From Enterobacter phage EspM4VN, in the sequence record LC373201.2: a DNA stretch of 64,000 nucleotides; one strand, written 5' to 3'. Below the pieces are notes generated by a model. That model was not told the DNA's origin. It saw only the letters and a program-made list of their open reading frames with translations, and did no database searches. Positions 8,721 to 25,063 of this stretch are shown here, one piece after another; position 1 is the stretch's first letter; every line of letters starts with the position of its first letter. The position numbers were made by a program, and so were the translations under genes.

Positions 8721-8739
8721 TCTTTACTTCCTCTTTTGA

Positions 8740-9855
8740 TTAAAAATTAAACGGATAACGACGACGGCCACCATTGTACTCCATTCGCTGCAATATGAAA
8801 ATTGCGGTGAACGGCAGACAGCCCAGCAGAACAACAATCACAACTTCCCAGGTCTTGAGTTCCCGCCACTTCAGGTACTCCATTTCCTTCATCTCAACCC
8901 GGTTGTAACCTTTGGTGATGTTGGCAACAACGTCTGCCATGACGCCGATACCCATATCATGCCCGGTCAGGTCCATACCGTTGCGGGAGTGGAGTTCACG
9001 GTTGTGCATACCATCAGCGAACGAAGTGCTCTTACCCCAATTGATCTTCAGGTCTTTGCTGATATCGGTCACGACGATAACGTCGTTCTTTTTACCGCCA
9101 TCCCAAGCATAGACCAAGCCCTGGAAGTATTCAACTGGCTGACCGGAAGTCACAACCCAGACGATATTCACCTGCTTGGCTGCGCCCAGCTTCTTCAGGA
9201 CATCGTTCAGATAGTCGTTCCAGTATGTGGTCGGCAACGCCAGACCAGACACGTTCAGGACACGAGTGACACGATAATAGTCATAGACTTCAGGATACTT
9301 CGGAATCTTGTCTTTGAAGCGCTCGGCAAACTGCTGGTCTGAGCGAGAGAACAGAGAGTCCTTGTTGCCCAGCACATAGTTCATGTAGGAATGCTCACGG
9401 GCTGCGGGTTCGCCGATCTGAACCTGCGCCCAGCGCGGCGGCTGACCAAGACCACGGCGGTCGATACGGTCGATTGTCAGGTTGCCAACAGTCGTCAGCA
9501 CATCCCAATCCACGTCGTATGAATGCTCATAGCAGGTACTACAATGGCGGGTACGGGTGCAGGACTTGCTGCTACCGGAGCCGGAGCATGATGTGGTGTA
9601 ATAGCAGTTGCATTGATACGAGTGCTCACAGCTTACCTTATTCCGCTCCTTTGCAGTGACGTACCCGTTCAGGATCTCAACATCCCCTGAACTGCCGAGG
9701 GAGAACGCCGCATAAGCCCCGGCCTGAATCAGACATGACAACACCACTACAATCGCCGTTGCGCCCAAGGTCTCTTTCGGCTCATGGGTCTTGCGGTGGT
9801 AGACCACAAACAGGATGGCCAGTATCAATGGCACACCAAACAGGAGGTAGATCAT
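8740..9855 (-). CDS. Cys-rich integral membrane protein (371 aa)
   Basis: N-terminal TM helices, a cysteine-dense segment (CEHSYQCNCYYTTSCSGSGSSKSCTRTRHCSTCYEH), and C-terminal TM helices. Confidence 0.5.
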   Translation of the reverse strand: MIYLLFGVPLILAILFVVYHRKTHEPKETLGATAIVVVLSCLIQAGAYAAFSLGSSGDVEILNGYVTAKERNKVSCEHSYQCNCYYTTSCSGSGSSKSCTRTRHCSTCYEHSYDVDWDVLTTVGNLTIDRIDRRGLGQPPRWAQVQIGEPAAREHSYMNYVLGNKDSLFSRSDQQFAERFKDKIPKYPEVYDYYRVTRVLNVSGLALPTTYWNDYLNDVLKKLGAAKQVNIVWVVTSGQPVEYFQGLVYAWDGGKKNDVIVVTDISKDLKINWGKSTSFADGMHNRELHSRNGMDLTGHDMGIGVMADVVANITKGYNRVEMKEMEYLKWRELKTWEVVIVVLLGCLPFTAIFILQRMEYNGGRRRYPFNF

Positions 9856-10239
9856 AACACACCGTCCACGAGTTGAGCCTTGGACATCCCAAGGAGTTGA
9901 TTTCTGTGGGCAGTATGCGCTCCATTTCTTTTCAACAACACCCAGCGTTCATCATGATATTTGGGATCCAGGGCTTCATCAAAAGAAACATGATGAGTAA
10001 ACATAATCGCAGCTACTGAATGAAGAACATGTGCCGTAGCCCTTTTCAAAGCGCGATCACTAACGATCTGATCTTCATATTCAAGACCCATGAGATCCAG
10101 TTCTTTGAAAATATATGCAAAGGACAATTCACCCTGAGAATACATACGAACAATGGCATCCTTTTTAGGATGAAGAGTACCATCTGTTTCTTTCATGAAC
10201 AGATCATACAGATACTGCTTGTATTCAGACTTTGTCATC
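9852..10239 (-). CDS. hypothetical protein (start MTKSEYKQ)
   Basis: ORF. The internal start at 10239 makes an ATGA-type overlap with the upstream gene stop at 10235. Confidence 0.4.
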
Positions 10240-10459
10240 TTGTACGCCCTCCAACACAGATGATGTTCAGTTCGCCACGGGCAAATCCACTCTTGCCGGA
10301 GGTTTTGTTGCCGTTCAGCATTTTCCACAGTCCATCAGCGTCGCCCAATTTCGGCATCTGATACTCTACCACAGGGATCTTGCGATCTTCTTCGAGCATT
10401 ACAGACACCATAGATTCGATATCCAGGGAGTCCATATCTTCAATTCGTTGCATTGCCAT
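10235..10459 (-). CDS. hypothetical protein (74 aa)
   Basis: ORF track. Confidence 0.4.
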   Translation of the reverse strand: MAMQRIEDMDSLDIESMVSVMLEEDRKIPVVEYQMPKLGDADGLWKMLNGNKTSGKSGFARGELNIICVGGRTR

Positions 10460-10540
10460 GATGTATTTCCTTGCAAAAGAAAGGGGAACGGGCTAATATT
10501 AACCCATTCCCCTTTATTGAAGAACGCAATCGCAGTCAGA

Positions 10541-10708
10541 TTACTTTTTCTTCAGCTCGTCCAGTTTGGCTTCGATTTGTTCCAGGATGTCTTTACCCTT
10601 CTGAACAATCACTTCACCGTCTTGCGCGTGTTTGCGGAAGACCAGAGCACCAGCGATGAAGCCGACAACCACACCAGGAAGTGTATACACCAACAGATCT
10701 TGTAACAT
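10541..10708 (-). CDS. small single-TM peptide (55 aa, MLQDLLVYTLPGVVVGFIAGALVFRKH...)
   Basis: Below the ORF-track cutoff. GAGGAT RBS 8 nt upstream. Hydrophobic core followed by a charged tail. Confidence 0.35.
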   Translation of the reverse strand: MLQDLLVYTLPGVVVGFIAGALVFRKHAQDGEVIVQKGKDILEQIEAKLDELKKK

Positions 10709-10744
10709 GATAATATCCTCACTTTATAGGCGAGGATATTTATA

Positions 10745-11980
10745 TCAGCGTTTCAAGAGTGCCATGAGGTTGACGCTGTTGGACTTCGGCTTTTCCTCAA
10801 CCTTGCGTACAGGCATCTTCAGGTTTGTACAGACCTCGGATGGTTCCCAGCGCGTACCCTTTTGCAGGTGCCAAATGTGTAGAGGGATACCAGTCTCAAA
10901 GAACACAGGCATCTTCCACTTCTGGACGCCTGGAACGTGCCCTGCAGGAGCCTTTTCGCACAACAGGGTATCTGGTAGCCAGAGTGATCGGGCTTCCCAG
11001 AGCGCTGCACAGGAGTACTCCGGCCAGATGCGTTCCATGTAGTCGATCTCATCCCAGGTACGCTCGGCATCCCACCCAATGTAACGGGTGTTCTTCTCGC
11101 GGAAGAACTTCTTCAGCCAACAGGCACCTGAGGTCTCAAAGTTCAGGCGGTTGATGAACGTCAGATGCCCGAACTCAGCCACGCAATCCTGGAACGCCTG
11201 TTCAAGGTCGGCCTCAAGGATATCACACTCTTCATCCGTGATAGGACAACCGTTGATCTTTTTCTTCCCGTGCTTAGTCACCCAGTCGTCACGGTTGGAC
11301 AAGAACGCCGCGCCGTTGCGGTTGGACTCACTACCATCGCGGTCACGCAGCATGAAACCGGGGACGTCGATATCCCACATGTTACCGAAGACCATGTTCA
11401 AGGCTTCCAGGAAGTTCCAGGCGCTCAGGCGGCCGAAGTATTTCCAGGACATCGCCGTTTCCCACAACTTAGTGAACTGGTCGCCTTGGGGCTTGGTCTC
11501 CAACATCGGTCGGAATGCTTCCATCTGGGAGCGCCCAGCCAGCCAGTCGATGTAAGACTGAACACATGGAATCATCTTGGACTTGCGGTAGCGGCAGTCG
11601 GTATCGAAGCGCATGCGATCAAAGTTCAGGTTGTACCAATCAGAGAAGCGCTGCATCTCTTCCTTAGACTGAGGAGGCACAGGGAACTCACTGTAGATCG
11701 TCCATGGACCGATGGCGTTATAGCAGCAGCCCCAAAGGAACGACATCCAGATCTTGCGCTCGACCTTCTCAAGCTGTGTGATGCCTTCAGTGACTTCGAT
11801 GGCATAGTCCATCAGACGCATCTGCTGGTTGTGCTCTTCGGTGTAGGACAGCGCCTCCACCCAAGCCTTGAGCAGGTACATGCGATTCTCAGGCTTGCGA
11901 TAGTCAACAGCCAGGTCAATCGGGTACTTCCATTCAGCCGGAGGCGTATAGCCCGTCGGCATTTTAGATAGATGGGTCAT
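10745..11980 (-). CDS. hypothetical protein (411 aa), possibly a DNA-modification enzyme by neighbourhood
   Basis: Long ORF in the same operon as the P-loop kinase; no motif recognised. Confidence 0.5.
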   Translation of the reverse strand: MTHLSKMPTGYTPPAEWKYPIDLAVDYRKPENRMYLLKAWVEALSYTEEHNQQMRLMDYAIEVTEGITQLEKVERKIWMSFLWGCCYNAIGPWTIYSEFPVPPQSKEEMQRFSDWYNLNFDRMRFDTDCRYRKSKMIPCVQSYIDWLAGRSQMEAFRPMLETKPQGDQFTKLWETAMSWKYFGRLSAWNFLEALNMVFGNMWDIDVPGFMLRDRDGSESNRNGAAFLSNRDDWVTKHGKKKINGCPITDEECDILEADLEQAFQDCVAEFGHLTFINRLNFETSGACWLKKFFREKNTRYIGWDAERTWDEIDYMERIWPEYSCAALWEARSLWLPDTLLCEKAPAGHVPGVQKWKMPVFFETGIPLHIWHLQKGTRWEPSEVCTNLKMPVRKVEEKPKSNSVNLMALLKR

Positions 11981-12162
11981 CCGAGTTTACTCCCGAGTTC
12001 AACACGGAACGCCAGATAGAATAAAGTGGCGATCGATACAGGACAAATCACCAGGAAGGGGCGCTGCTCAACCCCTTCAGTCACCATGACGCCGACGAGC
12101 GATACCGTGAAGATAACGAACATCAGCATCATAAAGATAAAATCAACCGACCTGATCTTCAT
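11977..12162 (-). CDS. small membrane protein (61 aa)
   Basis: ORF with two hydrophobic segments; ATGA-type overlap with the downstream gene. Confidence 0.4.
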   Translation of the reverse strand: MKIRSVDFIFMMLMFVIFTVSLVGVMVTEGVEQRPFLVICPVSIATLFYLAFRVELGSKLG

Positions 12163-12219
12163 CTTTCGCTTCCTCTTCAGGAGCCGCAGCTTCAGGAGCC
12201 AGCTGGATATCTTCCGGCT

Positions 12220-12516
12220 TCACGAACCCATCGGGCGCTCCCACATATCGATGAAGCGGCGGTCGGCGGTCACAAACCAAAGACGGGCTGCAGTGTGGGT
12301 CTTACCCGAGATGAACATCTGGGCATTCGTCTGGGTGCGGAACGGAGCCGCCTGCAACCACTTACCGAAGTCTTTGGACGACGGGTTGGCATTCAGCTGG
12401 AACTGAGGGATGACGCGGTTCTCTTCAGGAATCAGGCGCACAGCAGTAATGTGCTTGGCGTTTCCGGTGTAGTCAATTGCGACAGCCACAGCATCGCGAG
12501 GGATTTGAATTTTCAT
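12220..12516 (-). CDS. hypothetical protein (about 98 aa, start MKIQIPRD)
   Basis: Internal ATG at 12516 with an AAGGA RBS. The ORF N-terminal extension looks non-coding. Confidence 0.4.
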   Translation of the reverse strand: MKIQIPRDAVAVAIDYTGNAKHITAVRLIPEENRVIPQFQLNANPSSKDFGKWLQAAPFRTQTNAQMFISGKTHTAARLWFVTADRRFIDMWERPMGS

Positions 12517-12716
12517 TTTGGTTCCTTGAATATTTTGTAACCAGCAGCGCCGATAGACATCACCGCGCCAATACAGTACATCACAGTCACGTTCAACTTC
12601 TCTGAGGTTGTTAAGTCCAGAGGAGTGAAATGATAGGCCAGGCCAGCGCACATTGAAACGGCTGCCATAATCAGGCCGATGAACAACAGATAATTAGACA
12701 ACCGTTTCATGATCAC
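12513..12716 (-). CDS. small membrane protein (67 aa)
   Basis: ORF with two TM helices; ATGA-type overlap with the upstream kinase stop. Confidence 0.45.
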   Translation of the reverse strand: MIMKRLSNYLLFIGLIMAAVSMCAGLAYHFTPLDLTTSEKLNVTVMYCIGAVMSIGAAGYKIFKEPK

Positions 12717-13627
12717 CCCTTCTTCATCAGGTCAAGGAGAGAGCGCGACGCTGCCTTCGGTGCTTCTGGCTCGGCACTCGCCTTGGTTTTAGTTTTGGAT
12801 GCCTTCTGCGGCTTCTCAGGCACTCTGTGCGCCAAAGGATCCTGCCCACCGACCTCACGGGTCATTGGGTTGGTCTCACAGAAAGCATAGAAGTCTTTGC
12901 TGTAAAACCCATACGCTCGAGTTTCGTCCAATTGATGGTGGATAGCATTACCAACCACCCACAAAGGAGCATCGAACGGAAGGATAGCCACTTCTGAATT
13001 TGTCGGTGATTTGAACTCCTGGGTGTTGGTTTCCGGCGCTTTGTACAGAATGTCCTGCCCGCTGTAATTGTCTACCACAGGGGTGAAGCCCAGCGCCAGC
13101 ATTTCGGCCTTCGACTTCTCAAACTCCTTGGAGTAAGATTCGTTGCGTGACCAGCCAGAGTCCCCTGCTTCCTTACCAGAGCGCCCACGGATACGCGCAT
13201 CGTACTGGTAGCGGTCAGGGTATGCAAAGTACAGCAGCGCCAGAGATTCAATCGGATAGTTCTTGAACATCCATTCAGGACGCCATTTGTCCGACAACAT
13301 GAGGGGTTCACCCTCACAGACCAGGGTATACCCCTGAGCCAGCCAGCCTTTGACCAGATCACGAGCGATGTCACCGGATCCTGTGGCGGCATGAACGCCG
13401 TCCATAGAAGTCCATGAAGCCAGACCGGACTTGTTGGACACAGTGTACTGGCCGACGAAGATTAACTTCAGCTCTTCGAATTTCAGGCCAAACGGGCGCG
13501 TCTTGTCGCCGATAGTGTAGGTCAGTTCGGTAGGCTCCAGCTTCGTACGGAGCCATTCGATGAACTGTACGACACGAGTGCCTTTACCCGTGCCGGAGGT
13601 TCCTTTGATTACGATGATCTTTGCCAT
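12713..13627 (-). CDS. P-loop kinase, candidate 5-hydroxymethyluracil DNA kinase (5-HMUDK-like)
   Basis: N-terminal Walker A (IKGTSGTGKGTR). The roughly 300-aa size and the phage-modification context match the 5-hmdU DNA kinases of hypermodifying phages. Confidence 0.5.
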   Translation of the reverse strand: MAKIIVIKGTSGTGKGTRVVQFIEWLRTKLEPTELTYTIGDKTRPFGLKFEELKLIFVGQYTVSNKSGLASWTSMDGVHAATGSGDIARDLVKGWLAQGYTLVCEGEPLMLSDKWRPEWMFKNYPIESLALLYFAYPDRYQYDARIRGRSGKEAGDSGWSRNESYSKEFEKSKAEMLALGFTPVVDNYSGQDILYKAPETNTQEFKSPTNSEVAILPFDAPLWVVGNAIHHQLDETRAYGFYSKDFYAFCETNPMTREVGGQDPLAHRVPEKPQKASKTKTKASAEPEAPKAASRSLLDLMKKG

Positions 13628-13932
13628 TATACAGCATCCTCAATACGCCAGCTCACGCCGCCCATCCAAGGTGCCCAGAATACAGCAACCTGCAGACGAC
13701 CGTTTTCTTCAAACTTCACTTTATACTGGTCGTCGAAGTTATAGAAGATTTCATCCGCTTCAGAGCGCTGACCGATCTCCACCAGTACGTCATGGAGAGC
13801 CTTGGCTGCGCCGATAGGAGTCGGAGTCTCCTGGCGACGAATGAAGTTGTTCACATGGATAATCACTCCATCCATATCACTATCACCAGAGCGTTTGTCT
13901 GGGGTTTCCCCGAACTTATTCTGTTCTTGCAC
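13627..13932 (-). CDS. hypothetical protein (101 aa)
   Basis: ORF track. Confidence 0.45.
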   Translation of the reverse strand: MQEQNKFGETPDKRSGDSDMDGVIIHVNNFIRRQETPTPIGAAKALHDVLVEIGQRSEADEIFYNFDDQYKVKFEENGRLQVAVFWAPWMGGVSWRIEDAV

Positions 13933-13941
13933 GATGTCCTC

Positions 13942-14717
13942 CTATCGGACGTATTGATAATGACCAATCAAGCGGTTCACCACTTCAACAATATTGTGAT
14001 TCAGGAAGTCGAAGTGGTTCTGGCCTTCTACTGGTTTAATATAAAGCATATCTTCCGAGTTCGAAAGATCCAGTTTTTCATAATTGCCCTGAGGAACAAA
14101 GATGACGAAGATGTTGTTCAGGCCGCATGGCTCGACATACTTCGGATTGTCATCAATCAGGACATCGCCAGCCAGCAGGTGCTTTTCGTCGGTGCTGACA
14201 AACCCGTTGAAGATGCCTGGGAACTTGTCGTAGACAAACTGGCGCTTGCTGCGCTCGTGTTCCGGCTCGCACTTAGACACTGCGATGAATTCAACATTGT
14301 CAAAGTCTTCGAGCAGAATCTTCTTCAGATTCACTAAGAACTCGTAAGCACCAGGGAGCGGGTTCATCTTGGCATACAGGTCAGGGCGACGCCACCAGTC
14401 CATAGGATCGTTACCGCTCGGCACACGTTGTTTGTGCAGCCCCAATTGGACTTCACGGTACAGCCACGCCGGATGCGCACGTTCGCGCATCAGGATAGCC
14501 AGGTCGCCAGCATGGGCCATATAGCACTCTTTGGTGATCGGCTGGAATGGCGCTGGTCCATGACCGTCATAGTGCTTGGACACGCTGAGGTTGTCTTCGT
14601 TGAACCACTGTACCCAAGGGAGAGGCTATCAACCAGCGTCAGGTCAACATCCACGAGGACGCGATACAGACCACCGACCTTTGATTTCATATCATAGAGG
14701 CAGACCAGGTTGTTCAT
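13942..14717 (-). CDS. 5'(3')-deoxyribonucleotidase (NT5C/HAD family), apparently frameshifted near 14620-14635
   Basis: The N-terminal frame from ATG 14717 gives YRVLVDVDLTLVD (HAD motif I as in dNT-1/dNT-2), then turns to S/T-rich junk. The second frame gives LPWVQWFNEDN... through motif III DVLIDDNP. A one-nucleotide insertion would fuse them. Confidence 0.55.
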
Positions 14718-15064
14718 TTGTCTTCCTCAACTTTGTCATAGCCTGTAGCAACACACTGTTCTTCTGTGCAATCAGCGTACAGAACAACAGACGCCTGCTT
14801 CACATAGGTGGTGCAGTGGTAGGTTTCGTCTTCCTGGATGGAATCGTCATAGTTGCAGACAGTCTGCAGGGGACCAGGAGTGGTGTTTTCCAGAGCCGCA
14901 TGAGCCTTGATGGTGTCTTCCATCTTAGACGTGGCCTGCTCATTAGTGAACGTCGGCGCGTCGAGGTCAACGGTAGACGCAACGTCCAGTAAGGTGGAGC
15001 ATGCGGTGGTAGAGAAAGCCAGAGCACACACCAGAAGAATCTTATTGAGTTTCATTTCAATCAC
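14714..15064 (-). CDS. putative lipoprotein (signal peptide MKLNKILLVCALAFSTTAC)
   Basis: N-terminal signal peptide ending in a Cys at a lipobox-like position. Confidence 0.45.
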   Translation of the reverse strand: MIEMKLNKILLVCALAFSTTACSTLLDVASTVDLDAPTFTNEQATSKMEDTIKAHAALENTTPGPLQTVCNYDDSIQEDETYHCTTYVKQASVVLYADCTEEQCVATGYDKVEEDK

Positions 15065-15116
15065 CTGTTTGTCAAAGGATAACAGGGGGAATTATATCCC
15101 CCTTTGGTTTATTGAA

Positions 15117-18116
15117 TCAACCTTTCTTCTTTTGCATCATGGCAAGAAGGTTCACACGGCGCTTGTGTGACCAGCCGACCACATCGAGGATGGACTGAAT
15201 CGGGTCGATGAAGGACTTCTCAAAGGCTGTATGGTAATCCACCCATTTACCCATACCCAGTTCCTCGGGGAAGAACTCAGGATATGCGAAGTAATTCTGA
15301 CCAAACGGGTTGCCATTCTTCAGCAGTACCATGTTGACCTTATCACCCGACTCAATCATTGGCAAGCCGAGGTCTTCGTTCTTCTCTACCATGCGGTTGT
15401 AACCCACACATGCCTTGGCAGCATAGTGAGCACCAGAGATGAACGAGCCGTCGGCAGCCACACACTTCTCTATGTCGGACACGCCGGATGCCTTGGCGAT
15501 ATCGTCTACAGAGAGCTTCATGTACTCCTCTTTGTACTGGGAGATGAGCGTCTGCACTTCCTCTTCGGTGCCGAGCAGGATACGCTCATAGCACTTAACA
15601 AGACGCTCACGACACCATTCGGGAGTGGTGGACTTACGGGCTTCCAGACCTTTGAACTTGATCTTCGGCTTCTCGTACTTGATGCCCTCACTGTCATACA
15701 CAGCCATGGCATACATCTTCTTGGCTCGCCAGACGGCGGCTGATGCAATTACTTCACGCTCCCACACCATGCGCTGCTCGAACCCGTTCATGGTGTTACA
15801 CAGAAGCTGTGCCCACTCATTGGTCTTCGGCTGGTAGTTGTCTTTGATCCATTGGTCGATGTTGTCAACCATCTTGTGGTGGTCAGTCTCATCCGGCCAC
15901 AGTTGCTTGACAAGACGCTCAATGCAGATGTAGTTGGAGTCGGTATCACCTGCGATGACGAAGTCCTGGCCTGTCGTACCACACAGCTTGTTCAGATAAT
16001 CATCGGTGTAACGCTTGTTCCACTTGTTGATCAGCTGACCGGACGTTGTGATGGCTTCAGCGATGTTGAGGTTGAAGTACTCTTTGAACCAGACGTTCGA
16101 GATCGCGCCATAGCCCGCGTTCATCAAGATCTTCAGACCTTGCTGGAGGGTATCTTGGGCAACCCCAAGGTCTTCCCACTTGTGCATCACTTCAGTCAGG
16201 GCATCAAGATCGATGTTCTTGTGCTCTTCATACCAGTCGGCATCATAGAAGCGAGACTTCATGGCCGACTCAAGCTGGAAGTCGCCCTTCGACATTTCCT
16301 TACACCAACCAGCCCACTGCTCGTACTTCAGCCCCTTGGCTTTCTCCACTTTACGGTCGCTGTAGATACCGCGCATGATTTCAGACAGGAACGACATCTT
16401 CTCGTTGCTGAAGAATTGGACGTTAGGCGTGAAGGACACGTTGTAGCGGCGCAGGGTCTCAAAGTGGAACTCACCCAGGGCGACCAGTTCATCAACGACC
16501 TGTAAACGCTCATCAACCGCACGCAACAGCTTGTCGTGCAGTGCTTTCATCAACCGACGTTTGTGCATCGGCGTGCTCATGTCGTTCATCTTCGCAGCCA
16601 GTTCTTCACACATGGCTTCAATGATTTCACGGCGCTGATGTTTGTCACCAACGATGGTCTCAGGACCGAGGTTGTATTGCTGGATGATGTGAGGGTAGAG
16701 GGAGTTCAAGTCCTCAGAGAAGACCCAGAAGTAGATTCCTGGAGCCACCTCCATGACGTATGCGCCCTCAAAGTCGGTCGGTCCATCGTACACGCGCTGG
16801 ATCTTGGGCACGATCCCCTTCTCATAGAGGCGATAGTAGCACATTGCCAGCCACGGAGCCACAGTGCCAAGGCCATCCTCATAGTTGGACTTGGTGCGGT
16901 ACGCCAGGACGAACATCAGCTGGAGCAGACGCAGCTTCTGTTCAAGACGCCACACCAGCTTGACGTCCTTGATACCATATCGGGTGTGTTTGGCATAGTC
17001 GTTGAAGTACAGATCAAAGAGCGACTTACTCTCACTGTAGTCCATCTTCTTCTCACCCAGCTCAACATATGCAATCCAGTCAAGAGAGTAGCGCTCACGG
17101 GTGGTGTACGTGTGCTTCTTGTAGATCTGCATGTAGTCGAGCATAGGACAGCCCACGAACTGATACGTCGTGATGTCGCCCTTCTTATCGCGAATGATGC
17201 GCTTCTTGATGATACCCCAAGGACTCAGGCGCGATGTCTCGCTCTCACCCAGCACCTGATTCATGCGCTCAACAAGATATGGGCTATCGAACGTCTCAAT
17301 GTTCCATCCCGTCCATCCGTCAAACTGACGCTCTGACCAGAAGTCAAGGAAAGATCTCAGCAGGTCTTGCTCGGTGACAAACTCCTGATACACAACCTCA
17401 AGGCCGCCGATCTCTTTGTCTTCGGTGTCGTAGGCGAACTTATTACGATCTTTGGAACACGGCATACCCCACACCATGAACTTGTTGGTCGCCATGTCCT
17501 GAAGCTGGATGAGCGTGATGGGGAAAGCCGCGTTCATATCTTGGGTGATCTTGCCGTTGCTGTCAATGACAGGGAACTGGTCGGTTACATTGTTGCTGAT
17601 GAAGGAACCAGGGAAGTGCTCGCGAACAAAGTCATGGTTGGCCAGGACTTGCTTATGGAAGCGGCGGATGCGCGCCTCGCTGCCTTTGAACGTCTGTTGC
17701 TCAATGGTTGGGTGTGGGAATGGACCTTTGGTCATCACTCCGTCTTTCCATCCAGCAGAGAACACTTCTATATCCAGGTTGGCGATATGGATGTTGGTGT
17801 AATCGGGTTCAATCTTTCCTGGGAAGCTGTGGGCAATGAACTGGTATGCATAATCCGTCTGGCCGTAGATCGCCGCTCCCTGCACTTCCTTGTACTCCTC
17901 AAGGTAGCCATCGGCTGTTCGCATGTCGGCGAACTTCTTGGCGATCAAGGGTTCATTGAGCAGGCCGACTTTGTCAACATTTGAATAATCAGCCGTGGGT
18001 AAATAGAGAGTGGGTTCGAATTTCTTTTTCAGCAGACGACGATTGCCCATGTCATCCGCGATTCGAATCAACAGGTCATTGCCCCTTCGGGCAACGTTCG
18101 TATAGAAAACGGTCAT
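15117..18116 (-). CDS. DNA polymerase, family B (T4 gp43-like)
   Basis: 999 aa. Motif C (IAGDTDSNYI) and motif B (KILMNAGYG). N-terminal exonuclease region. Confidence 0.9.
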   Translation of the reverse strand: MTVFYTNVARRGNDLLIRIADDMGNRRLLKKKFEPTLYLPTADYSNVDKVGLLNEPLIAKKFADMRTADGYLEEYKEVQGAAIYGQTDYAYQFIAHSFPGKIEPDYTNIHIANLDIEVFSAGWKDGVMTKGPFPHPTIEQQTFKGSEARIRRFHKQVLANHDFVREHFPGSFISNNVTDQFPVIDSNGKITQDMNAAFPITLIQLQDMATNKFMVWGMPCSKDRNKFAYDTEDKEIGGLEVVYQEFVTEQDLLRSFLDFWSERQFDGWTGWNIETFDSPYLVERMNQVLGESETSRLSPWGIIKKRIIRDKKGDITTYQFVGCPMLDYMQIYKKHTYTTRERYSLDWIAYVELGEKKMDYSESKSLFDLYFNDYAKHTRYGIKDVKLVWRLEQKLRLLQLMFVLAYRTKSNYEDGLGTVAPWLAMCYYRLYEKGIVPKIQRVYDGPTDFEGAYVMEVAPGIYFWVFSEDLNSLYPHIIQQYNLGPETIVGDKHQRREIIEAMCEELAAKMNDMSTPMHKRRLMKALHDKLLRAVDERLQVVDELVALGEFHFETLRRYNVSFTPNVQFFSNEKMSFLSEIMRGIYSDRKVEKAKGLKYEQWAGWCKEMSKGDFQLESAMKSRFYDADWYEEHKNIDLDALTEVMHKWEDLGVAQDTLQQGLKILMNAGYGAISNVWFKEYFNLNIAEAITTSGQLINKWNKRYTDDYLNKLCGTTGQDFVIAGDTDSNYICIERLVKQLWPDETDHHKMVDNIDQWIKDNYQPKTNEWAQLLCNTMNGFEQRMVWEREVIASAAVWRAKKMYAMAVYDSEGIKYEKPKIKFKGLEARKSTTPEWCRERLVKCYERILLGTEEEVQTLISQYKEEYMKLSVDDIAKASGVSDIEKCVAADGSFISGAHYAAKACVGYNRMVEKNEDLGLPMIESGDKVNMVLLKNGNPFGQNYFAYPEFFPEELGMGKWVDYHTAFEKSFIDPIQSILDVVGWSHKRRVNLLAMMQKKKG

Positions 18117-18195
18117 GTAATTCTCCAGGTTATCCGCGCCGTTAGCACGTGGGCATATTTAACCATAGAGCCATTCATTGACCAAGGAGTTTATT

Positions 18196-18768
18196 ATGGC
18201 AATCCCCCTCGTTGGTATGATCCCAGGAGCGCTCAAGCAACTCTGGAACCTCGGGACTGATTTGATCCAATATAAGCGGGAAGTTGTGCAAGCCAAACAC
18301 GATGTCAAGCTGGAGGCTATCAAGTCCTCCTCAGATTGGGAGCTGTCCAAGATCACCGAAGTCGGCGGATCTTGGAAAGACGAATTCTGGACTATTGTGT
18401 TGGCCGTACCCGCTATCCTCGTCATGACTGCTCCGGTTGTGGAACTGATTCTGTTCCCTGGTGAGTATCATAAAGGGGATTTCATCAAAGCAGTAATCGG
18501 TGGTCTCCAGGCGCTTGATACCGCACCTGAATGGTATACCTATTCATTATTGACAGCAATTAGTGCATCATTCGGTATCAAAGGCTACAACCACTACAAA
18601 AGCAACGGGCGAAAAGCCCAGGCTGTGGATGCTCTCAAGCAGTTTGGGGTCAGGGTCGTACAAAAAGATCCCACTGTTGTTACTCAGTCGGGTGCTCCCG
18701 ATCTTGAGTCTGCTCCCCCAGCTGGGTCTACTGCGACCTCTGGTGCGTGGCCTGATCTGAAGAAATAA
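18196..18768 (+). CDS. membrane protein (about 190 aa, start MAIPLVGMIPG)
   Basis: AGGAG RBS 8 nt upstream of the ATG at 18196; several hydrophobic segments. Confidence 0.5.
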   Translation: MAIPLVGMIPGALKQLWNLGTDLIQYKREVVQAKHDVKLEAIKSSSDWELSKITEVGGSWKDEFWTIVLAVPAILVMTAPVVELILFPGEYHKGDFIKAVIGGLQALDTAPEWYTYSLLTAISASFGIKGYNHYKSNGRKAQAVDALKQFGVRVVQKDPTVVTQSGAPDLESAPPAGSTATSGAWPDLKK

Positions 18769-18773
18769 GTTCA

Positions 18774-18799
18774 AGGGGAGGAAACTCCCCTTTCTTTTG
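18774..18799 (+). terminator. intrinsic terminator (AAGGGGAGgaaaCTCCCCTT + T-run)
   Basis: GC-rich hairpin followed by TTTCTTTT. Confidence 0.55.
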
Positions 18800-18810
18800 G
18801 TGTTTAGGGA

Positions 18811-19023
18811 ATGAAAGTGGTAAACAAGAGATTGCTCGTCACCCAAGGTGGGGCGACGATAGTGCGCGGAAGGATCTATGAACAGACACAGCTGGGTGAT
18901 CACAAGACACGCCTGACTGTTAAGGCTCCCGATGGTGGTTGGCCGACTAAGGTGATTGTCCCAGACGGTCTCATAGAACGAGGGTCGGCAACGTACAAGG
19001 GAGCAGAGTTCAAAATTTATTAA
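18811..19023 (+). CDS. hypothetical protein (70 aa)
   Basis: ORF track. Confidence 0.4.
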   Translation: MKVVNKRLLVTQGGATIVRGRIYEQTQLGDHKTRLTVKAPDGGWPTKVIVPDGLIERGSATYKGAEFKIY

Positions 19024-19041
19024 AATATTTATTGAATAAAG

Positions 19042-19069
19042 TTTACTTCTTCAATAACTGGCGTATACT
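19042..19069 (+). promoter_or_regulatory. sigma70-like early promoter candidate (TTTACT-N16-TATACT) containing a TTCTTCAATAA motif
   Basis: -35/-10-like hexamers with 16-nt spacing, about 50 nt upstream of the ATG at 19119. Confidence 0.35.
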
Positions 19070-19118
19070 TCTAATTGTAGTACGAACAAACAACAATCTG
19101 AAGAGAAGGAAATACATC

Positions 19119-19646
19119 ATGAAAATTTTAGCAGAAACCGCAAACAAAAACACAGTTCTGTCTGACGCAGGTGAAGGTCACGTCTTCGGTAACTTCTTCG
19201 GCGCGGCAGACGGCGACAAACTTTCTGCTGGCCGTTACATGGTGGTGTATCATCTTATCATGAAAGGCGTTCGCCAAGAGTTGAAACAGAAATTTGACTC
19301 CTACGTTGATGCCATGAACTTCTTCCTCTTCCAGAAACGTCACGAACTGTTCGTTGAAGCGAAAGACGCAGGCCTGGACGACGCGACTGCCGAACTGATC
19401 GCAGAAGGTAAAATGTCCCTCGAGGAAGCTCTGGGTGACATGGATTGCGAAGCCGAAGCCCATTATATCGAATATTCCGCTTACCAGAATGAATGTGAAG
19501 ACGATCCTGAAGATGACGGCTTCGACCCTGACCTTCACGGCGGCGAGGATGACAATACTCCTTCCCTGGAAGTGATCATGGCAGGCGGTCAGGCCGCTTG
19601 GGAGTGGCAGAACGAGAAGAACGCCTGGCTGGATTCCCGTCTTTAA
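19119..19646 (+). CDS. acidic hypothetical protein (about 175 aa, start MKILAET)
   Basis: ORF; start chosen downstream of the candidate promoter. Confidence 0.5.
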   Translation: MKILAETANKNTVLSDAGEGHVFGNFFGAADGDKLSAGRYMVVYHLIMKGVRQELKQKFDSYVDAMNFFLFQKRHELFVEAKDAGLDDATAELIAEGKMSLEEALGDMDCEAEAHYIEYSAYQNECEDDPEDDGFDPDLHGGEDDNTPSLEVIMAGGQAAWEWQNEKNAWLDSRL

Positions 19647-19653
19647 TATGACC

Positions 19654-19671
19654 AAGCCCCTTCGGGGGCTT
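19654..19671 (+). terminator. terminator-like hairpin (AAGCCCCttcgGGGGCTT)
   Basis: Perfect stem with a UUCG-type tetraloop directly after the stop codon. Confidence 0.45.
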
Positions 19672-19694
19672 ACTTTGAACTGAAGGACTATATC

Positions 19695-20246
19695 ATGACT
19701 ATGCCCAAAACTCCTGTCCGTATCGCTGTTGAGCCTCTGTTATCACAGGCTGAAGAAGCTGCCGAGCAGTACGCGAACAAAATCATCAAGAACGTGATGG
19801 ACGACCTGGCCGCCAACGGCTGGGATCTTCAGAAGTGCGCCCCTTGGCCGTCAACTGTCGGCGTCCGGATGGGTCACCACGATTACCACCGCATGAAGGC
19901 AAAACAGTCCTTGTATATGAGCCTGACTACCGACAATAACCCGCCAAACCGCTCTTATCAGGTCGGTGCGCCGAACATCGTCAAGGCCGATCCAGAGCGC
20001 CAACGTCTGTTCATCAAGGAAGCCCGTCGCAACGCTGCCTATCAGTATGAGTCTTTCATCTGTAAACTGGAAGACAAGATTGGCGGTCATAGCGCGGCTG
20101 TCCTCGACGGTTCCCACATTTGGGGACATTCAATCCTGACCGTGACTACTCCGGAAGGGGTTCAGCGCTGGAAGACTCAGACGATCATCAATGTGTCTAA
20201 GCTGGGCAAACTCTTTAACCAATATCCAACTCGCAAGGTGAAATAA
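19695..20246 (+). CDS. hypothetical protein (183 aa)
   Basis: ORF track. Confidence 0.5.
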   Translation: MTMPKTPVRIAVEPLLSQAEEAAEQYANKIIKNVMDDLAANGWDLQKCAPWPSTVGVRMGHHDYHRMKAKQSLYMSLTTDNNPPNRSYQVGAPNIVKADPERQRLFIKEARRNAAYQYESFICKLEDKIGGHSAAVLDGSHIWGHSILTVTTPEGVQRWKTQTIINVSKLGKLFNQYPTRKVK

Positions 20247-20605
20247 TGGAAAACAAAATCAAATTGACCTGGCGCGTCGCCCCTGAACCAACGGGGCGCT
20301 ATCGCTCCTTTGAGCGCCGCGCATGGCCGTCAGCCGAGTACAAGAACGGCGCTTGTGCGGCCTATATGTCTCACGAAGAAAGCTATGAACCATCTGTTCA
20401 CCGAAACGCGACTGATCTCGTCATTAAACTTCACATCGCCAAATGGGATCAGAAAGAAGACGGGCGCTGGGGATTCAAATGGCGTGTGTTGAACAAGCGC
20501 GCTTCTTCCATTGCAGAAGCCAAACAAATCGTGGAAGAGTTCCTGAATGGTCAGGCGAAGAACTCTGTGGTGCACCCGGACTACCGTGGAGGGGAAGTGA
20601 AATGA
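20246..20605 (+). CDS. hypothetical protein (119 aa)
   Basis: ORF; TAATG-type overlap with the upstream gene. Confidence 0.5.
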   Translation: MENKIKLTWRVAPEPTGRYRSFERRAWPSAEYKNGACAAYMSHEESYEPSVHRNATDLVIKLHIAKWDQKEDGRWGFKWRVLNKRASSIAEAKQIVEEFLNGQAKNSVVHPDYRGGEVK

Positions 20606-20607
20606 AG

Positions 20608-20629
20608 AAAGGGGCTTAATGCCCCTTTT
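20608..20629. terminator. bidirectional intrinsic terminator between convergent genes (AAAGGGGCttaaTGCCCCTTTT)
   Basis: Hairpin flanked by an A-run and a T-run, between plus-strand 20246..20605 and minus-strand 20631..21089. Confidence 0.6.
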
Positions 20630-20630
20630 G

Positions 20631-21089
20631 TTATTCTTCCCAGAAGTCGTCATCGTCACCGACGGCGGCCAGTTCCGTGTCCAGGTCTTCATCACTGAAT
20701 GGTGGCAGCACGCCATTCTGGATCAGATAATCCATCTCATCGTCTTCCAGCTGCAGGTCAGTAGCAACATACAATGCTCCGCTGCCCTCTTCGTCCGTCT
20801 CGATGCTGTATGACGTGTATGCCATGCCATTCACCGTGATGATCACCGACGTTGGATCCTCGGGATCTACGTGCGCCTCGAACGGTACACCGTCAATCGG
20901 CGCATCTTCCAGGAAGGTGGCAAGGGCTACTGCTGCGCGGACAACATCAGTGCCTTCAACGCCAGCATAGATTTCTTCCGCGCCCGTCTCTTCACGATCA
21001 AACAGCTCAATCGTGATGCCGTCTTGAACGCCAGTCCAGACTGGGGCGTCGCTTGGGCGTTCTGATTCAAACAATTTGGAGGTTAGCAT
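20631..21089 (-). CDS. highly acidic hypothetical protein (152 aa), late-promoter driven
   Basis: ORF. CTAAATACCCCATATGG late-promoter motif on the minus strand about 30 nt upstream. Confidence 0.5.
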   Translation of the reverse strand: MLTSKLFESERPSDAPVWTGVQDGITIELFDREETGAEEIYAGVEGTDVVRAAVALATFLEDAPIDGVPFEAHVDPEDPTSVIITVNGMAYTSYSIETDEEGSGALYVATDLQLEDDEMDYLIQNGVLPPFSDEDLDTELAAVGDDDDFWEE

Positions 21090-21120
21090 GTTGGGTTCCT
21101 CAGTGGGTTAGCCATATGGG

Positions 21121-21128
21121 GTATTTAG
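21121..21128 (-). promoter_or_regulatory. late promoter motif CTAAATACCCC (minus strand)
   Basis: Exact copy of the motif found upstream of structural genes. Plus strand reads gtatttag. Confidence 0.5.
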
Positions 21129-21588
21129 GCTTCCCGCTTGGCGAGGCCTGGTTTGTACAGGACGATTTCACGCACCATAGGCACCCCAGAGCGGTCCAGC
21201 ACGATGGTGGAGTCATAGCCCGAGCAATTAGCGCGGCGGCGTTCTCATGGATCTTACCAGCTTCGATACCGAGGGCGCGCATTGCATCTTCCCATGCGGA
21301 CACGTTGTTGGAGTCCAGTTCGAGCGGCTTGTTGACGTTGACGTTGAACACCAGCACATGAGGTTCACCAGTCTTGCGATAGCGAACGGCGTTTTCAGCA
21401 TAGCGCTGTGCCTCTTCTTCACTACCAGTCAGATAGAACCCAGGTCCCATCGTACCACAATCAGTCTGACCGAAGCGCTCAAAGTCGAAGACATCGAATT
21501 CTACGTTGGAGCCGTGAAAGAGGCGCATGTTACCGAACTTGGGTTCAGCCTCAGACGCCTCGCGGAAATATTCAAGAAAGGTTTTCAT
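21125..21588 (-). CDS. hypothetical protein, apparently frameshifted near 21231-21242 (GC-rich gccgccgcg)
   Basis: N-terminal 120 aa are well-formed (MKTFLEYFRE...GKIHENAA). A second frame gives a plausible C-terminus (ANCSGYDSTIVLDRSGVPMVREIVLYKPGLAKREA*) whose stop lies inside the late-promoter motif. A one-nucleotide insertion would fuse them. Confidence 0.4.
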
Positions 21589-21627
21589 AGATACCCCACA
21601 CTGGTTGTATGGGGTATTTAGGAGGGA

Positions 21628-22821
21628 TCAGGAAGGAGTGAAGGTGTTGACGTTCACTTCATCTGGGATAGCCAGTTCAGGGCATGCTGCCTTCATTGGC
21701 TCGATGTACGGCTTGCTACCCACGATCCAGAACAGAGTGTTCTCGTTGAGCAGCTCTGGCTTGTGTTGTTGGATCCAGGTCATGACCTTGCCTTCATAAC
21801 GCGGATGCAGTTCGATATCACCCCACTGATAATCCATCAGGTCATTGTAACGAACCCAATTGGTCGTGTGAAGATCCCAATGGTGTACCTCGAAGCGAGG
21901 AAGCGTTATCTCTGGCTCGTCCTTCTGCCTGATACCACTTAGGAGGCCAGCCAGCGAAACGCTCTTAGAGGCATGCTGAAGCTCCTTCTTGCCGTGCACA
22001 TAGTCTGGGTTGTCGTGATAACGACGAGTGAAGTCGACAATGTGAGGCAGATTGGCTTGCTTGCCAATGATGCGTAGGCGGCTTTCAATGAAGTCCAGGC
22101 GGTTCGGACCAATGCCGATCAGATATACGCGCTTCAGATTAGGCTTCGGATGCATTGCCAGTCCGGTCAGGATGCTCGTGCATGAGTTGCATGAGCCAGC
22201 AGGGATAATCAGATCGGTAATATGGTCAGGGATGTTGGAAACCTGCTCACCACCTAGCATGTGGAAACCTGCGATTCGCTCAGGGGAATGCACTGTATGG
22301 TCAAGGGTTATCCCATACTCCAGATAGTATGCCTTCCGGTTGGTCTGTTCGATGAGCTTCTTACAGCGCGGCTGGATGGTGCTGTTGTAGCCCGAGCCGA
22401 CGAAGTTGAACTCACTGCCAAACCAGGCGCTCATCTCCACCATGCCATGGTTCATGCAGGTGTTTGGTTTGGTCGCGCCCAGGACTGTGGTCGTCTTGCC
22501 GCCGAAGTGCCGAGAGACTGCCGTCGCCATAGGGGACTGCGGACTACCAACGACAGTGCCGTGGATGATGTCAGGAGAGCCTCCGGCCTTGAGGTGCTCA
22601 ACCATCAGCCAGATGGCCTGGCGGAGTTTGCTGCCATTGATGCCCTGCTGGCCATTTGCATAATTGGACAGCGGCGCAAAGTAATCTTCACGCTTGAACC
22701 AGACCTGCTGATTGGTTTCTGGGTTGGCAACGAGTTCACACGGAGTGTGCTTGTAGAGATAATCTTCCCAGTGAACCAGGTTGCGGTCGAGGGAAAGGGT
22801 ATCGAAGATGGTCTTGTTCAT
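21628..22821 (-). CDS. PLP-dependent enzyme, fold type II (ACC-deaminase/D-cysteine desulfhydrase-like), candidate thymidine-hypermodification enzyme
   Basis: 397 aa. NGSKLRQAIWL resembles the GGNKxRKL lysine motif. IIPAGSCNSCTSILTG resembles the Gly/Ser phosphate-binding loop. Confidence 0.5.
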   Translation of the reverse strand: MNKTIFDTLSLDRNLVHWEDYLYKHTPCELVANPETNQQVWFKREDYFAPLSNYANGQQGINGSKLRQAIWLMVEHLKAGGSPDIIHGTVVGSPQSPMATAVSRHFGGKTTTVLGATKPNTCMNHGMVEMSAWFGSEFNFVGSGYNSTIQPRCKKLIEQTNRKAYYLEYGITLDHTVHSPERIAGFHMLGGEQVSNIPDHITDLIIPAGSCNSCTSILTGLAMHPKPNLKRVYLIGIGPNRLDFIESRLRIIGKQANLPHIVDFTRRYHDNPDYVHGKKELQHASKSVSLAGLLSGIRQKDEPEITLPRFEVHHWDLHTTNWVRYNDLMDYQWGDIELHPRYEGKVMTWIQQHKPELLNENTLFWIVGSKPYIEPMKAACPELAIPDEVNVNTFTPS

Positions 22822-22890
22822 TCTATTTCTCCTGTAGACATTGGCTTATCATAGCGTATCTACAGGAGTATAGAAAAGGAGAATCTCAGC

Positions 22891-23592
22891 TTACTTGGTC
22901 AGGAAGTAGAACATCCGACGTAGGAAAGACGATTTGACGGCAGGCTTCTCCTTCGGCACTGGGTACTGTAGGATCGGAGGAAGTTCAGGGTCTTGGCCTA
23001 CAGGGGCACCGAAGTCATTCAGAACACGACTGGCCGGAGGAGTCGGCGGTGTCGGCGCTTTCGTTTCACAGGCCGGAACGATGTTCACGACGTGACGCGG
23101 GGATCCAGCGGGATCATGAACAACCACATTACCTTGCACACTGACAGGCTTGACCAGAGTCTTTTCATACTCGCGAGCCATGGCCTGGTACTTCCGATTC
23201 TCTGCGTCGAAGTCCATGGCAACGACTTTGCGACAACGGCGCGTTGCGCTCTCGTCACCGTAGAAATCGTATCCGTTCTTAACCAGCCAGTGCACAGCAC
23301 GTTCAAATGATTGGAAGATCATGAACGGCTGACCATTGCCTTCTTCGGCAGCAGTGATGCTGGAGTAACCCATGAGCACAACCTGGCCTTTGACGCCAAG
23401 ATCAAACGTCATACCGAGGTTTGGGATGTCTTTGTCACGACGGAAGAAACCATTGTCACGGTGGATATAATTCGGCGACAAGAACTCATTCAGAGTACGT
23501 TTGTTGCCTTTGTATTCAAACAGACGGAGGCAGACCGGAGTAGACAGGTGCTCCCAATCTTCTTCGTTAGTCCAGATAGAAACATTACGCAT
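22891..23592 (-). CDS. hypothetical protein (233 aa)
   Basis: ORF track. Confidence 0.5.
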   Translation of the reverse strand: MRNVSIWTNEEDWEHLSTPVCLRLFEYKGNKRTLNEFLSPNYIHRDNGFFRRDKDIPNLGMTFDLGVKGQVVLMGYSSITAAEEGNGQPFMIFQSFERAVHWLVKNGYDFYGDESATRRCRKVVAMDFDAENRKYQAMAREYEKTLVKPVSVQGNVVVHDPAGSPRHVVNIVPACETKAPTPPTPPASRVLNDFGAPVGQDPELPPILQYPVPKEKPAVKSSFLRRMFYFLTK

Positions 23593-23662
23593 TGGTGTAT
23601 CCTCAAATCAATGATAGGGGTTTAACGGTTAAATTTTAAACCCCTATTAGTTGTTGAACAAA

Positions 23663-24181
23663 TTAGATGGTATTCATGTAGAGAGGGACAACCTGCTCAG
23701 CGATCAAAATGATCTCGTTGATGGTAAAGTCGCCGCCATAAGAGTTCAGCTTCATCTGCGCCCCGTTGGTCGCGAGGTTCCCTGCCTTGTCAACACTGAA
23801 GAACGTGATGAAAGAGAGAACGTCCGGAGGCGGTAAACTGGAATCACGGCTCTTTGACAACTGGTTGCCAGTGGAGCCGACAAAGTCCAGCAACATTGTC
23901 CTGTTGGAAGTTGAACCAGACCATGTTCCGATAATGTTCACCTTGACAGGCAAGATGGAATCTACGGGAAACGCATGGAATTTATGATCAGACAATTTGA
24001 AGAAAGGAGCTAACCCGGTCACGGACGAAGGATGTGGTGTCTTGCCATCCAACAACGTTAAGAGATCAACACCAGTCGCTCCAGCAGGCAAAGCCGCTGT
24101 AAGGCCAGAGAACCTCACTTCGACTTTGATGCGATGCGTCTGAAGCATATTGCCCAGATAAGGAGAAGGTAGAATGGCCAT
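23663..24181 (-). CDS. hypothetical protein (172 aa)
   Basis: ORF track. Confidence 0.5.
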   Translation of the reverse strand: MAILPSPYLGNMLQTHRIKVEVRFSGLTAALPAGATGVDLLTLLDGKTPHPSSVTGLAPFFKLSDHKFHAFPVDSILPVKVNIIGTWSGSTSNRTMLLDFVGSTGNQLSKSRDSSLPPPDVLSFITFFSVDKAGNLATNGAQMKLNSYGGDFTINEIILIAEQVVPLYMNTI

Positions 24182-24189
24182 GGCTCCTC

Positions 24190-24426
24190 CTAGGACACGA
24201 TAATAGAAGAAGCGGAAGACGCGCTCTTAACCCATCCGACCGTTGGTGGGGTGAGCACAACGATATTACCTTGATAGAGAGTATGAGCCGGAGAGGAAGC
24301 ACTCGGTGTGGTTGGACTATCACACAAATACACAGAACCTTGAGTCACTTGTATTGTTTTCAATGATGTGCCATCTGAGACTTGCGTCCATGTACTTGCG
24401 TCCAGAGTAAACTTGGCTGTTGCCAT
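24190..24426 (-). CDS. hypothetical protein (about 78 aa, start MATAKF)
   Basis: AGGAGG RBS. A T4-consensus late promoter TATAAATA lies about 27 nt upstream. Confidence 0.5.
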   Translation of the reverse strand: MATAKFTLDASTWTQVSDGTSLKTIQVTQGSVYLCDSPTTPSASSPAHTLYQGNIVVLTPPTVGWVKSASSASSIIVS

Positions 24427-24453
24427 GATACACCTCCTGTACAAGTTCAGATC

Positions 24454-24461
24454 TATTTATA
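24454..24461 (-). promoter_or_regulatory. T4-type late promoter TATAAATA (minus strand)
   Basis: Exact gp55-type consensus upstream of 24190..24426. It is preceded by the terminator hairpin AGCCGGATAaggaTATCCGGCT + T-run (24462-24495). Confidence 0.5.
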
Positions 24462-24907
24462 CCGGACAAAAGAAAGCCGGATATCCTTATCCGGCTATGC
24501 CACATCGATGGGATGGGTGGAAAGACTACACACTTCGCACTGGTACTGCCTTATGGGAGAGCGCGTCAGGAGTCGAACCTGAAGTCGTCGGCGTAGAGAA
24601 AGCTATTTGCATTTCACTATCCTCGCCTCGATTTTCTTAACTTCCTAAACACCCGATTACGAGAGAGTCGACATGCACATCTTCTAACTCTTCAGGAAGT
24701 CACGCCCAAAATATGATTTGCGATGATGGACCCATTCCATCTGGGGCTGGGTGAGTGGGAGTTGAACCCACAACGCTTGGCTCGCTTTCCCTACCATTCA
24801 GGCCACCCAATTCCAGGAGGTAGAACACCTTTGCCGTCAGTGTCCATGCGCCAGTCTTCCGCCCTAGCCTCCACTCGCGTCTGGGATTTCCGCGATGATC
24901 GCAAATT

Positions 24908-24996
24908 TGGCGGAAGGTGAAGGATTCGAACCTTCGGGGCTTATAAGCCCCACTCGATTAGCAATCGAGTCCCTTAAACCTCTCGGGCAACCTTCC
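24908..24996 (-). tRNA. tRNA-Ser (anticodon GCT), CCA encoded
   Basis: Hand fold: acceptor GGAAGGT/ACCTTCC, anticodon stem CTCGA/TCGAG with loop TTGCTAA, long variable arm, T-arm GAAGGTTCGAATCCTTC. Confidence 0.7.
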
Positions 24997-25063
24997 AGTA
25001 TTAGCCCCTCCCTGTCACCATCCAGGAATCCTGTAGGAATCGAACCTACACGAGGGGGTTATT

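Follow-up and report, generated by a model that had tools for sequence, protein, structure and literature searches.

Within a 64,000-nucleotide (nt) stretch of Enterobacter phage EspM4VN (LC373201.2), hereafter the window, we examined positions 10745-22821, where three minus-strand genes encode a predicted amino acid:DNA transferase (10745-11980), a predicted 5-hydroxymethyl-2'-deoxyuridine (5-hmdU) DNA kinase (12713-13627) and a putative pyridoxal phosphate (PLP)-dependent enzyme (21628-22821). These are very probably three genes of the pathway by which Salmonella phage ViI makes 5-(2-aminoethoxy)methyl-2'-deoxyuridine (5-NeOmdU), carried here by an Agtrevirus-like phage. All open reading frames (ORFs) named in an earlier note on this DNA were recovered where it had placed them on the minus strand, and the E-values of the family matches reported below lie far past chance level. 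Taxonomic placement was based on a megablast search of 10745-22821 against phage records. The 282 records matched belonged without exception to the Ackermannviridae (282/282), and the top matches were the Agtrevirus phages Gloob, SKML-39, P46FS4, MK-13 and Ag3, with 91-92% nucleotide identity over 90-95% of the query. Moreover, the full 64-kb window is colinear with ViI (Vi01), in a run that starts at rIIB/rIIA and takes in the polymerase region, tRNAs, baseplate, tail spikes and terminase before reaching the capsid genes. Placed by these matches, the window is part of an Agtrevirus-like, that is, ViI-like, Ackermannviridae genome. Together with three orthologues that share 86-92% identity with the ViI enzymes, this colinearity supports the proposal of the earlier note that a ViI-like phage with hypermodified thymidine is at hand.

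The kinase gene encodes 304 amino acids (aa) that begin with MAKIIVIKGTSGTGKGT and include, at residues 9-17, a Walker A motif of the form GxxGxGKG[T] (read as GTSGTGKGT), as anticipated by the earlier description of a P-loop kinase of roughly 300 aa with this motif at its N-terminus. A profile search against the 5-hmdU kinase families, which had been suggested as a check, returned Pfam PF18747 HMUD2 ("5-hmdU DNA kinase 2") over its entire length (profile 1-298/298; E 2.3e-158, 526.5 bits, cut-off 25) and no other Pfam family at E ≤0.01; grouping with deoxynucleoside monophosphate (dNMP) kinases was not seen. The protein is 85.9% identical over 304 aa to ViI gp243 and occupies the syntenic position, which identifies it as the gp243 orthologue. 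Just six differences from gp243 fall within residues 1-180, and the last third (the C-terminal 120 residues), which ends in a Lys-rich tail, is more divergent. An enzyme of the nucleotide pool, either a guanylate or a dNMP kinase acting on free nucleotides rather than on DNA, is what one would expect from the names of the RefSeq orthologues ('guanylate kinase') and of PHROG 4409, which is labelled likewise. This reading is very unlikely in view of the full-length match to a dedicated HMUD2 profile, of the 5-phosphomethyl-2'-deoxyuridine (5-PmdU) that the orthologue gp243 made in DNA in vitro (PMC8989533), and of the separate dNMP kinase gene present elsewhere in relatives. Judged by profile and identity, the window protein groups with the DNA-level 5-hmdU kinases and would phosphorylate 5-hmdU in DNA at the expense of ATP.

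Names given to this kinase in public records are misleading. In RefSeq entries NC_015296, NC_019910, NC_013693 and NC_049509, 'guanylate kinase' stands for the HMUD2 kinase, 'terminase small subunit' for the HMUD1 kinase and 'hypothetical protein' for the transferase, and the kinase annotation of P46FS4 is cut to 693 nt. In Ag3, P46FS4 and RPN242, a gene for a SegD-type homing endonuclease stands just before the kinase gene, between it and that for a DUF7254 protein, an insertion from which the window is free.

The 411-aa product of 10745-11980, regarded as uncharacterised in the earlier note, can now be assigned. It matched Pfam PF18724 ADDT ("amino acid:DNA transferase") with E 4.5e-61 and 207 bits (cut-off 26.2), a family present in 62/62 of its homologues, and is 91.5% identical over 411 aa to the serine:DNA transferase of ViI, gp247. 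We designate it the gp247 orthologue, a predicted amino acid:DNA transferase (AADT; aGPT-Pplase clade 2). Its substitutions relative to gp247 amount to 35, none of them at the 54 positions that are invariant among 40 transferase homologues. Single-sequence phmmer searches of the three enzymes against the PDB yielded no hits, and structure prediction with Foldseek was used instead; NCBIfam gave no match for any of four proteins. The AlphaFold model of the transferase (predicted local distance difference test, pLDDT, 91.1) found its sole meaningful PDB matches in the crystal structures of PaMx11 gp46/PUGT, 8z2n and 8z2m, with probability 1.00 and TM-scores of 0.56-0.59 on the target at a modest E-value of 0.044. 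According to this model, the fold is all-helical and DNA-glycosylase-like, as in the solved 5-PmdU glycinyltransferase, and the structural match bears out the suggestion that the 411-aa protein is an additional pathway component. E282 and C287 (ETSGAC) are invariant in the 40 homologues and align with ETILC of PaMx11 gp46 (the E243/C247 pair, residues named in PMC11472151) in an hhalign comparison of the family with gp46 that is weak overall (E 0.046) and useful only for the ET..C motif. A Glu/Cys pair is essential in both ViI gp247 and M6 gp51 (PMC8989533), and E282/C287 are candidates for the essential pair of the window enzyme. Given its 91.5% identity to gp247, the transferase would be expected to use serine as donor and to form an O-linkage.

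The third enzyme, encoded by 21628-22821 behind an AGGAG ribosome-binding site located 8 nt upstream of its ATG, comprises 397 aa and is 91.6% identical to residues 30-423 of ViI gp226, the O-serinyl-thymidine decarboxylase. Its AlphaFold model (40 homologues; pLDDT 90.2) adopts the type II (tryptophan-synthase-beta-like) fold, and the best Foldseek matches were Salmonella D-cysteine desulfhydrase and 1-aminocyclopropane-1-carboxylate (ACC) deaminase homologues (E ~1e-11), including 1j0a, the template used for gp226 (PMC8989533). The lysine motif, announced in the earlier note as GGNKxRKL-like, reads G60-I-N-G-S-K65-L-R67 and is indeed similar, though not identical. K65 is invariant in the 40 homologues and, given an offset of 27 residues, equals K92 of ViI gp226, which was proposed as the Schiff-base lysine (PMC8989533); by this correspondence, K65 is the Schiff-base lysine of the window enzyme. 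Some UniRef and JGI homologues are named 'threonine ammonia lyase' or 'ACC deaminase/D-cysteine desulfhydrase-like', and such enzymes are also the best structural matches, as expected if the protein were a threonine ammonia-lyase, ACC deaminase or D-cysteine desulfhydrase, in other words an auxiliary metabolic enzyme with free amino acids as substrates and no role on DNA. We give this explanation hardly any weight, since sequence identity to those enzymes is just 13-17% and the ViI orthologue decarboxylates O-serinyl-thymidine (O-SerT) in DNA (PMC8989533). The 91.6% identity to gp226 argues for the same decarboxylation in DNA by the window enzyme.

Two further genes lie near this one. A 162-aa protein with weak ART-PolyVal and DUF3990 (ADP-ribosyltransferase-like) matches is encoded at 21100-21588 on the minus strand, adjoining the PLP enzyme gene. 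It is kept in Gloob, RPN242 and ViI and deleted in SKML-39, Ag3 and P46FS4, and the frame of its 3' end varies among relatives. Just downstream of the PLP-gene block, a minus-strand gene (23663-24181) encodes a protein with an Sf6-type tail needle knob domain (PF16532, E 2.4e-28).

The chemistry attributed to these enzymes is that established for ViI. 5-NeOmdU was found in ViI DNA, and its formation was reconstituted from five lysates containing gp67, gp160, gp226, gp243 and gp247 (Lee et al. 2018 PNAS, PMC5889632). Both gp67 and gp243 add one phosphate to 5-hmdU in DNA, gp243 having been tested on SP8 DNA, where it produced 5-PmdU in vitro (Lee et al. 2021 NAR, PMC8989533). Purified gp247 then attaches L-serine to 5-PmdU via the hydroxyl to give O-SerT, with evidence that a Cys-C6 adduct and an exocyclic methylene are formed on the way, and purified gp226 decarboxylates O-SerT to 5-NeOmdU; each of the ViI reaction steps was reproduced with purified enzymes, without the small membrane ORFs (PMC8989533). 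Transferred to EspM4VN, the pathway would begin before replication, when a thymidylate-synthase homologue would generate 5-hmdUMP and the phage polymerase would place 5-hmdU in DNA instead of T; the Ag3 "thymidylate synthase" was earlier grouped with the hydroxymethylases of hydroxymethyluracil (hmU) phages (Kutter et al., PMC3184105). Once 5-hmdU is part of the DNA polymer, the P-loop kinase (12713-13627) would move the gamma-phosphate of ATP onto the 5-hydroxymethyl group, yielding 5-PmdU. A cysteine of the 411-aa transferase (10745-11980) would then probably attack C6, the phosphate would depart and an exocyclic methylene would arise, to which the side-chain hydroxyl of free L-serine would add to form O-SerT. 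Finally, the PLP enzyme (21628-22821) would capture the serine adduct by its free alpha-amine as an aldimine, and loss of CO2 would leave the aminoethoxy group. The last three steps have been carried out in vitro with the ViI proteins; for EspM4VN, we infer them because the proteins are 86-92% identical, the catalytic residues are conserved and the genes are syntenic.

The published pathway also amends the scheme of the earlier note in two respects. That scheme counted two enzyme classes, where the pathway has three (kinase, amino acid:DNA transferase and PLP enzyme), and it ascribed displacement of the phosphate to PLP chemistry, a step that falls to the 411-aa transferase, the PLP enzyme only decarboxylating the appended serine. 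Its description of the gene set as dispersed agrees with the distance of ~8 kb between the PLP gene and the kinase block, which matches what was reported for ViI (PMC5889632).

Several observations weigh against assigning the ViI pathway to this phage. First, the pathway is read here from genes, and serine specificity cannot be read from a sequence. Second, the window contains no homologue of the ViI thyA-like deoxyuridine monophosphate (dUMP) hydroxymethylase, of gp67 (kinase 1) or of gp160. Third, either of the two ViI kinases may be the one required in vivo (PMC5889632). Fourth, the PLP enzyme, with 397 aa versus 424 in ViI gp226, is 27 residues shorter at its N-terminus, and its score against PF00291, the search recommended by the earlier note, was 31.5 bits, under the gathering score of 35. 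With regard to this last point, the same search returned E 1.5e-7 and the model supports the fold-type-II assignment; many homologues of the enzyme are likewise devoid of a precomputed PF00291 match. The short N-terminal form occurs also in SKML-39, and the extension is not conserved: decarboxylase lengths are 397 aa here and in SKML-39, and 418-432 aa in Ag3, P46FS4, ViI, RPN242 and Gloob. As to the missing genes, homologues of the ViI dNMP kinase, dUTPase and dCMP deaminase are likewise not found in the window. In ViI and SKML-39, the genes for all six functions (dUMP hydroxymethylase, gp67, gp160, dNMP kinase, dUTPase and dCMP deaminase) lie in parts of the genome outside the stretch that the window covers. 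SKML-39, the closest relative, has the rest of the pathway, namely homologues of gp67, the thyA-like enzyme, dNMP kinase, dUTPase, gp160 and dCMP deaminase. Since the missing genes would be situated outside the window, the case for a complete pathway in EspM4VN has to be drawn from its relatives.

The same enzyme classes might also lead to another end product in the Agtrevirus lineage, either through use of a different amino acid or by leaving the adduct undecarboxylated. Known members of the family use glycine, serine or putrescine (PMC8989533), the transferase and PLP enzyme differ from those of ViI by 35 and 34 substitutions, respectively, besides the missing 27-residue N-terminus, and no nucleoside analysis of an Agtrevirus was found in the literature searched. 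Nonetheless, 91.5% and 91.6% identity to the ViI enzymes with no family-invariant position altered, the remoteness of the glycine-using enzymes (13-16% identity in structural alignment) and a review that regards the modification as family-wide (PMC11721090) leave this alternative only a slim chance, and 5-NeOmdU is the product that we favor.

Between the polymerase and kinase genes, a gene orthologous to ViI orf00239 (13942-14717, minus strand) encodes a predicted NT5C-like phosphatase of the haloacid dehalogenase (HAD) type. The Pfam PF06941 NT5C match that led to its inclusion in the modification gene set is real, if partial (33.1-34.6 bits, cut-off 24.8; profile 56-142/180), yet the gene is frameshifted here and its part in the pathway is hypothetical. 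Its 776 nt compare with 780-783 nt in six relatives, where it is whole. At 14618-14620, a run of four C is reduced to three (ViI has CGCC at this spot), a deletion unique among the seven genomes compared, which cuts the upstream HAD motif I (DVDLT) off from the remainder of the domain and leaves it in a 75-aa ORF of its own. Restoring one C recovers a 258-aa NT5C-like protein with 90% identity to its SKML-39 counterpart and no further damage. A second unique one-base deletion, from G4 to G3 at 12227-12229, truncates the gp245-like ORF (12220-12516, minus strand) to 98 aa, its C-terminal tail being carried on in another frame (ORF 12143-12280). A programmed -1 frameshift at the NT5C site was considered and rejected, as there is no canonical slippery heptamer and the nearby second homopolymer deletion favors a sequencing error.

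Were both frameshifts real, the NT5C-like and gp245-like genes would be pseudogenes of a partly decayed pathway and the level of modification might be altered, in line with two uncompensated deletions not shared by any of the relatives compared. We consider such decay unlikely, although it deserves more credit than a change of end product: both deletions affect four-base G/C homopolymer runs, which is typical of sequencing errors, the repaired NT5C-like protein matches its relatives at 90% identity, and no lesion affects the polymerase or any of the three characterised enzymes. The occurrence of two such deletions within 2.5 kb, in otherwise undamaged genes, instead suggests an error of sequencing or assembly. 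Regarding the function of the NT5C-like protein, the only functional precedent for such a phage enzyme is a dTMPase from Bacillus hmU phages, which PMC8989533 cites in its introduction, and a literature search for a phage nucleotidase tied to hydroxymethyluracil found nothing. The protein is a candidate pool enzyme of the dTMPase type that may deplete dTMP. A homologue with 29% identity occupies the same place in a Vibrio-phage-type contig, just after the polymerase and before HMUD2, and the neighborhood of the gene is thus conserved.

Among the remaining neighbors, all on the minus strand, the gene immediately upstream of the kinase (13627-13932) encodes a 101-aa DUF7254 protein (Pfam PF23912, E 1.9e-52) with 75% identity to ViI gp240 and ends in a stop codon that shares bases with the kinase start (TAATG). 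The 20 homologous clusters found are all at least 58% identical and confined to close relatives. Gloob annotates this protein as a thioredoxin, an assignment that we discarded given that it contains no cysteine and is restricted to close relatives. A family-B DNA polymerase gene (15117-18116; Pfam DNA_pol_B_exo1 and DNA_pol_B; 86% identity to the ViI polymerase) has the kinase block on one side and the PLP gene on the other, and on the basis of the published pathway (PMC8989533) its product presumably incorporates 5-hmdUTP. The polymerase gene is split in RPN242 and free of insertion in the window. Small ORFs encode a 67-aa membrane protein (12513-12716; 33% identity to ViI gp244), a 61-aa protein with two transmembrane segments (11977-12162; found in SKML-39, Ag3 and P46FS4, not in ViI, Gloob or RPN242) and, beyond the transferase gene, a 55-aa membrane protein (10541-10708). 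The idea that such small membrane proteins take part in the pathway was set aside as unlikely. They are poorly conserved or lineage-specific, they are missing in distant relatives (in two of which, the Vibrio-phage-type contig and another contig, the HMUD2 and ADDT genes are adjacent with no ORF between), and the purified ViI enzymes suffice in vitro. DUF7254, the NT5C-like phosphatase or the gp245-like ORF could conceivably be accessory factors of the polymer-level pathway, setting which 5-hmdU sites are hypermodified or converting leftover 5-hmdU to plain thymine. To this we assign a low probability, slightly below that of pathway decay; the basis for naming them is the translational coupling of DUF7254 to the kinase and the position of the NT5C-like gene beside the polymerase even in Vibrio relatives.

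The genes from DUF7292 (lipoprotein-like, 15064) to the transferase (10745) are co-directional, with junctions consisting of 1- or 4-nt overlaps or gaps of ~10 nt, a layout consistent with co-transcription. The PLP gene lies ~8 kb off, past the polymerase and a set of genes on the plus strand, a block flanked by two-way hairpins at 18773-18792 and 20607-20629. Scanning 8000-24500 revealed promoter-like sites no more frequently than in shuffled sequences. Terminator-like hairpins in this interval were commoner than expected and mapped to the borders of gene blocks, which is no proof of an operon. Further along the window, a tRNA cluster (24908-26639) comprises Ser(gct), Tyr(gta), Asn(gtt) and Ser(tga). 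A further prediction, tRNA-Asp (anticodon atc; 52879-52966), falls within a 741-aa ORF (52456-54681) that aligns with the ViI terminase region and is probably a false positive.

The arrangement is essentially that of ViI (a Kuttervirus), whose gene order is likewise polymerase, DUF7292, NT5C-like, DUF7254, kinase 2, small ORFs and transferase; in both, the PLP gene stands apart by ~8 kb, on the far side of the polymerase. The proteins are 86-92% identical and keep the Walker A and the catalytic Lys, Glu and Cys. Unlike ViI, the window has the shorter PLP enzyme, an extra 61-aa membrane ORF before the transferase, a divergent C-terminal third of the kinase and the frameshifts in the NT5C-like and gp245-like genes. 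Similarity is closer still to the Agtrevirus phages SKML-39, Ag3, P46FS4 and Gloob (Aglimvirinae), with proteins 90-97% identical to those of the window. The 397-aa PLP form is shared with SKML-39, and the 61-aa ORF with SKML-39, Ag3 and P46FS4, three phages from which the window differs in having the ART-PolyVal-like gene; the NT5C-like genes of the Agtrevirus relatives are whole, whereas that of the window is split. The Pseudomonas phages M6 and PaMx11 follow the same logic of kinase, transferase and tailoring enzyme (gp54/gp49 kinase, gp51/gp46 glycine:DNA transferase, gp52 PLP decarboxylase), and their transferases have the fold and Glu/Cys motif in common with that of the window at only 13-16% identity in structural alignment. 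They differ in being siphoviruses with tight operons, in attaching glycine by an N-C bond, with a radical-SAM isomerase or flavin lyase acting next, and in having a different, shorter P-loop kinase in contrast to the HMUD2 of the window. In the distant Vibrio-phage-type relative (Logan ERR14232598, 4644-18011), the pathway is far more compact and spans ~13 kb in the order polB, NT5C-like, two ORFs, HMUD2, ADDT, HMUDK_hel, HMUD1, thymidylate-synthase homologue and dUTPase.

Collectively, these data add a new sequence variant to a gene set whose presence in the family was known and whose pathway was worked out by in vitro reconstitution between 2018 and 2021. Its immediate value is for annotation, as the records of the nearest relatives still carry the names 'guanylate kinase', 'hypothetical protein' and 'threonine ammonia lyase'. 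In ViI, the modified base stands in for ~40% of T, and the majority of the commercial restriction enzymes tested cannot cut DNA of this kind; a 2024 review notes that the modification genes are conserved across the Ackermannviridae and that ~60% of commercial endonucleases fail on 5-NeOmdU DNA (PMC11721090). The prediction is that the DNA of EspM4VN would resist many restriction enzymes, which would bear on its cloning, sequencing and use in phage therapy.

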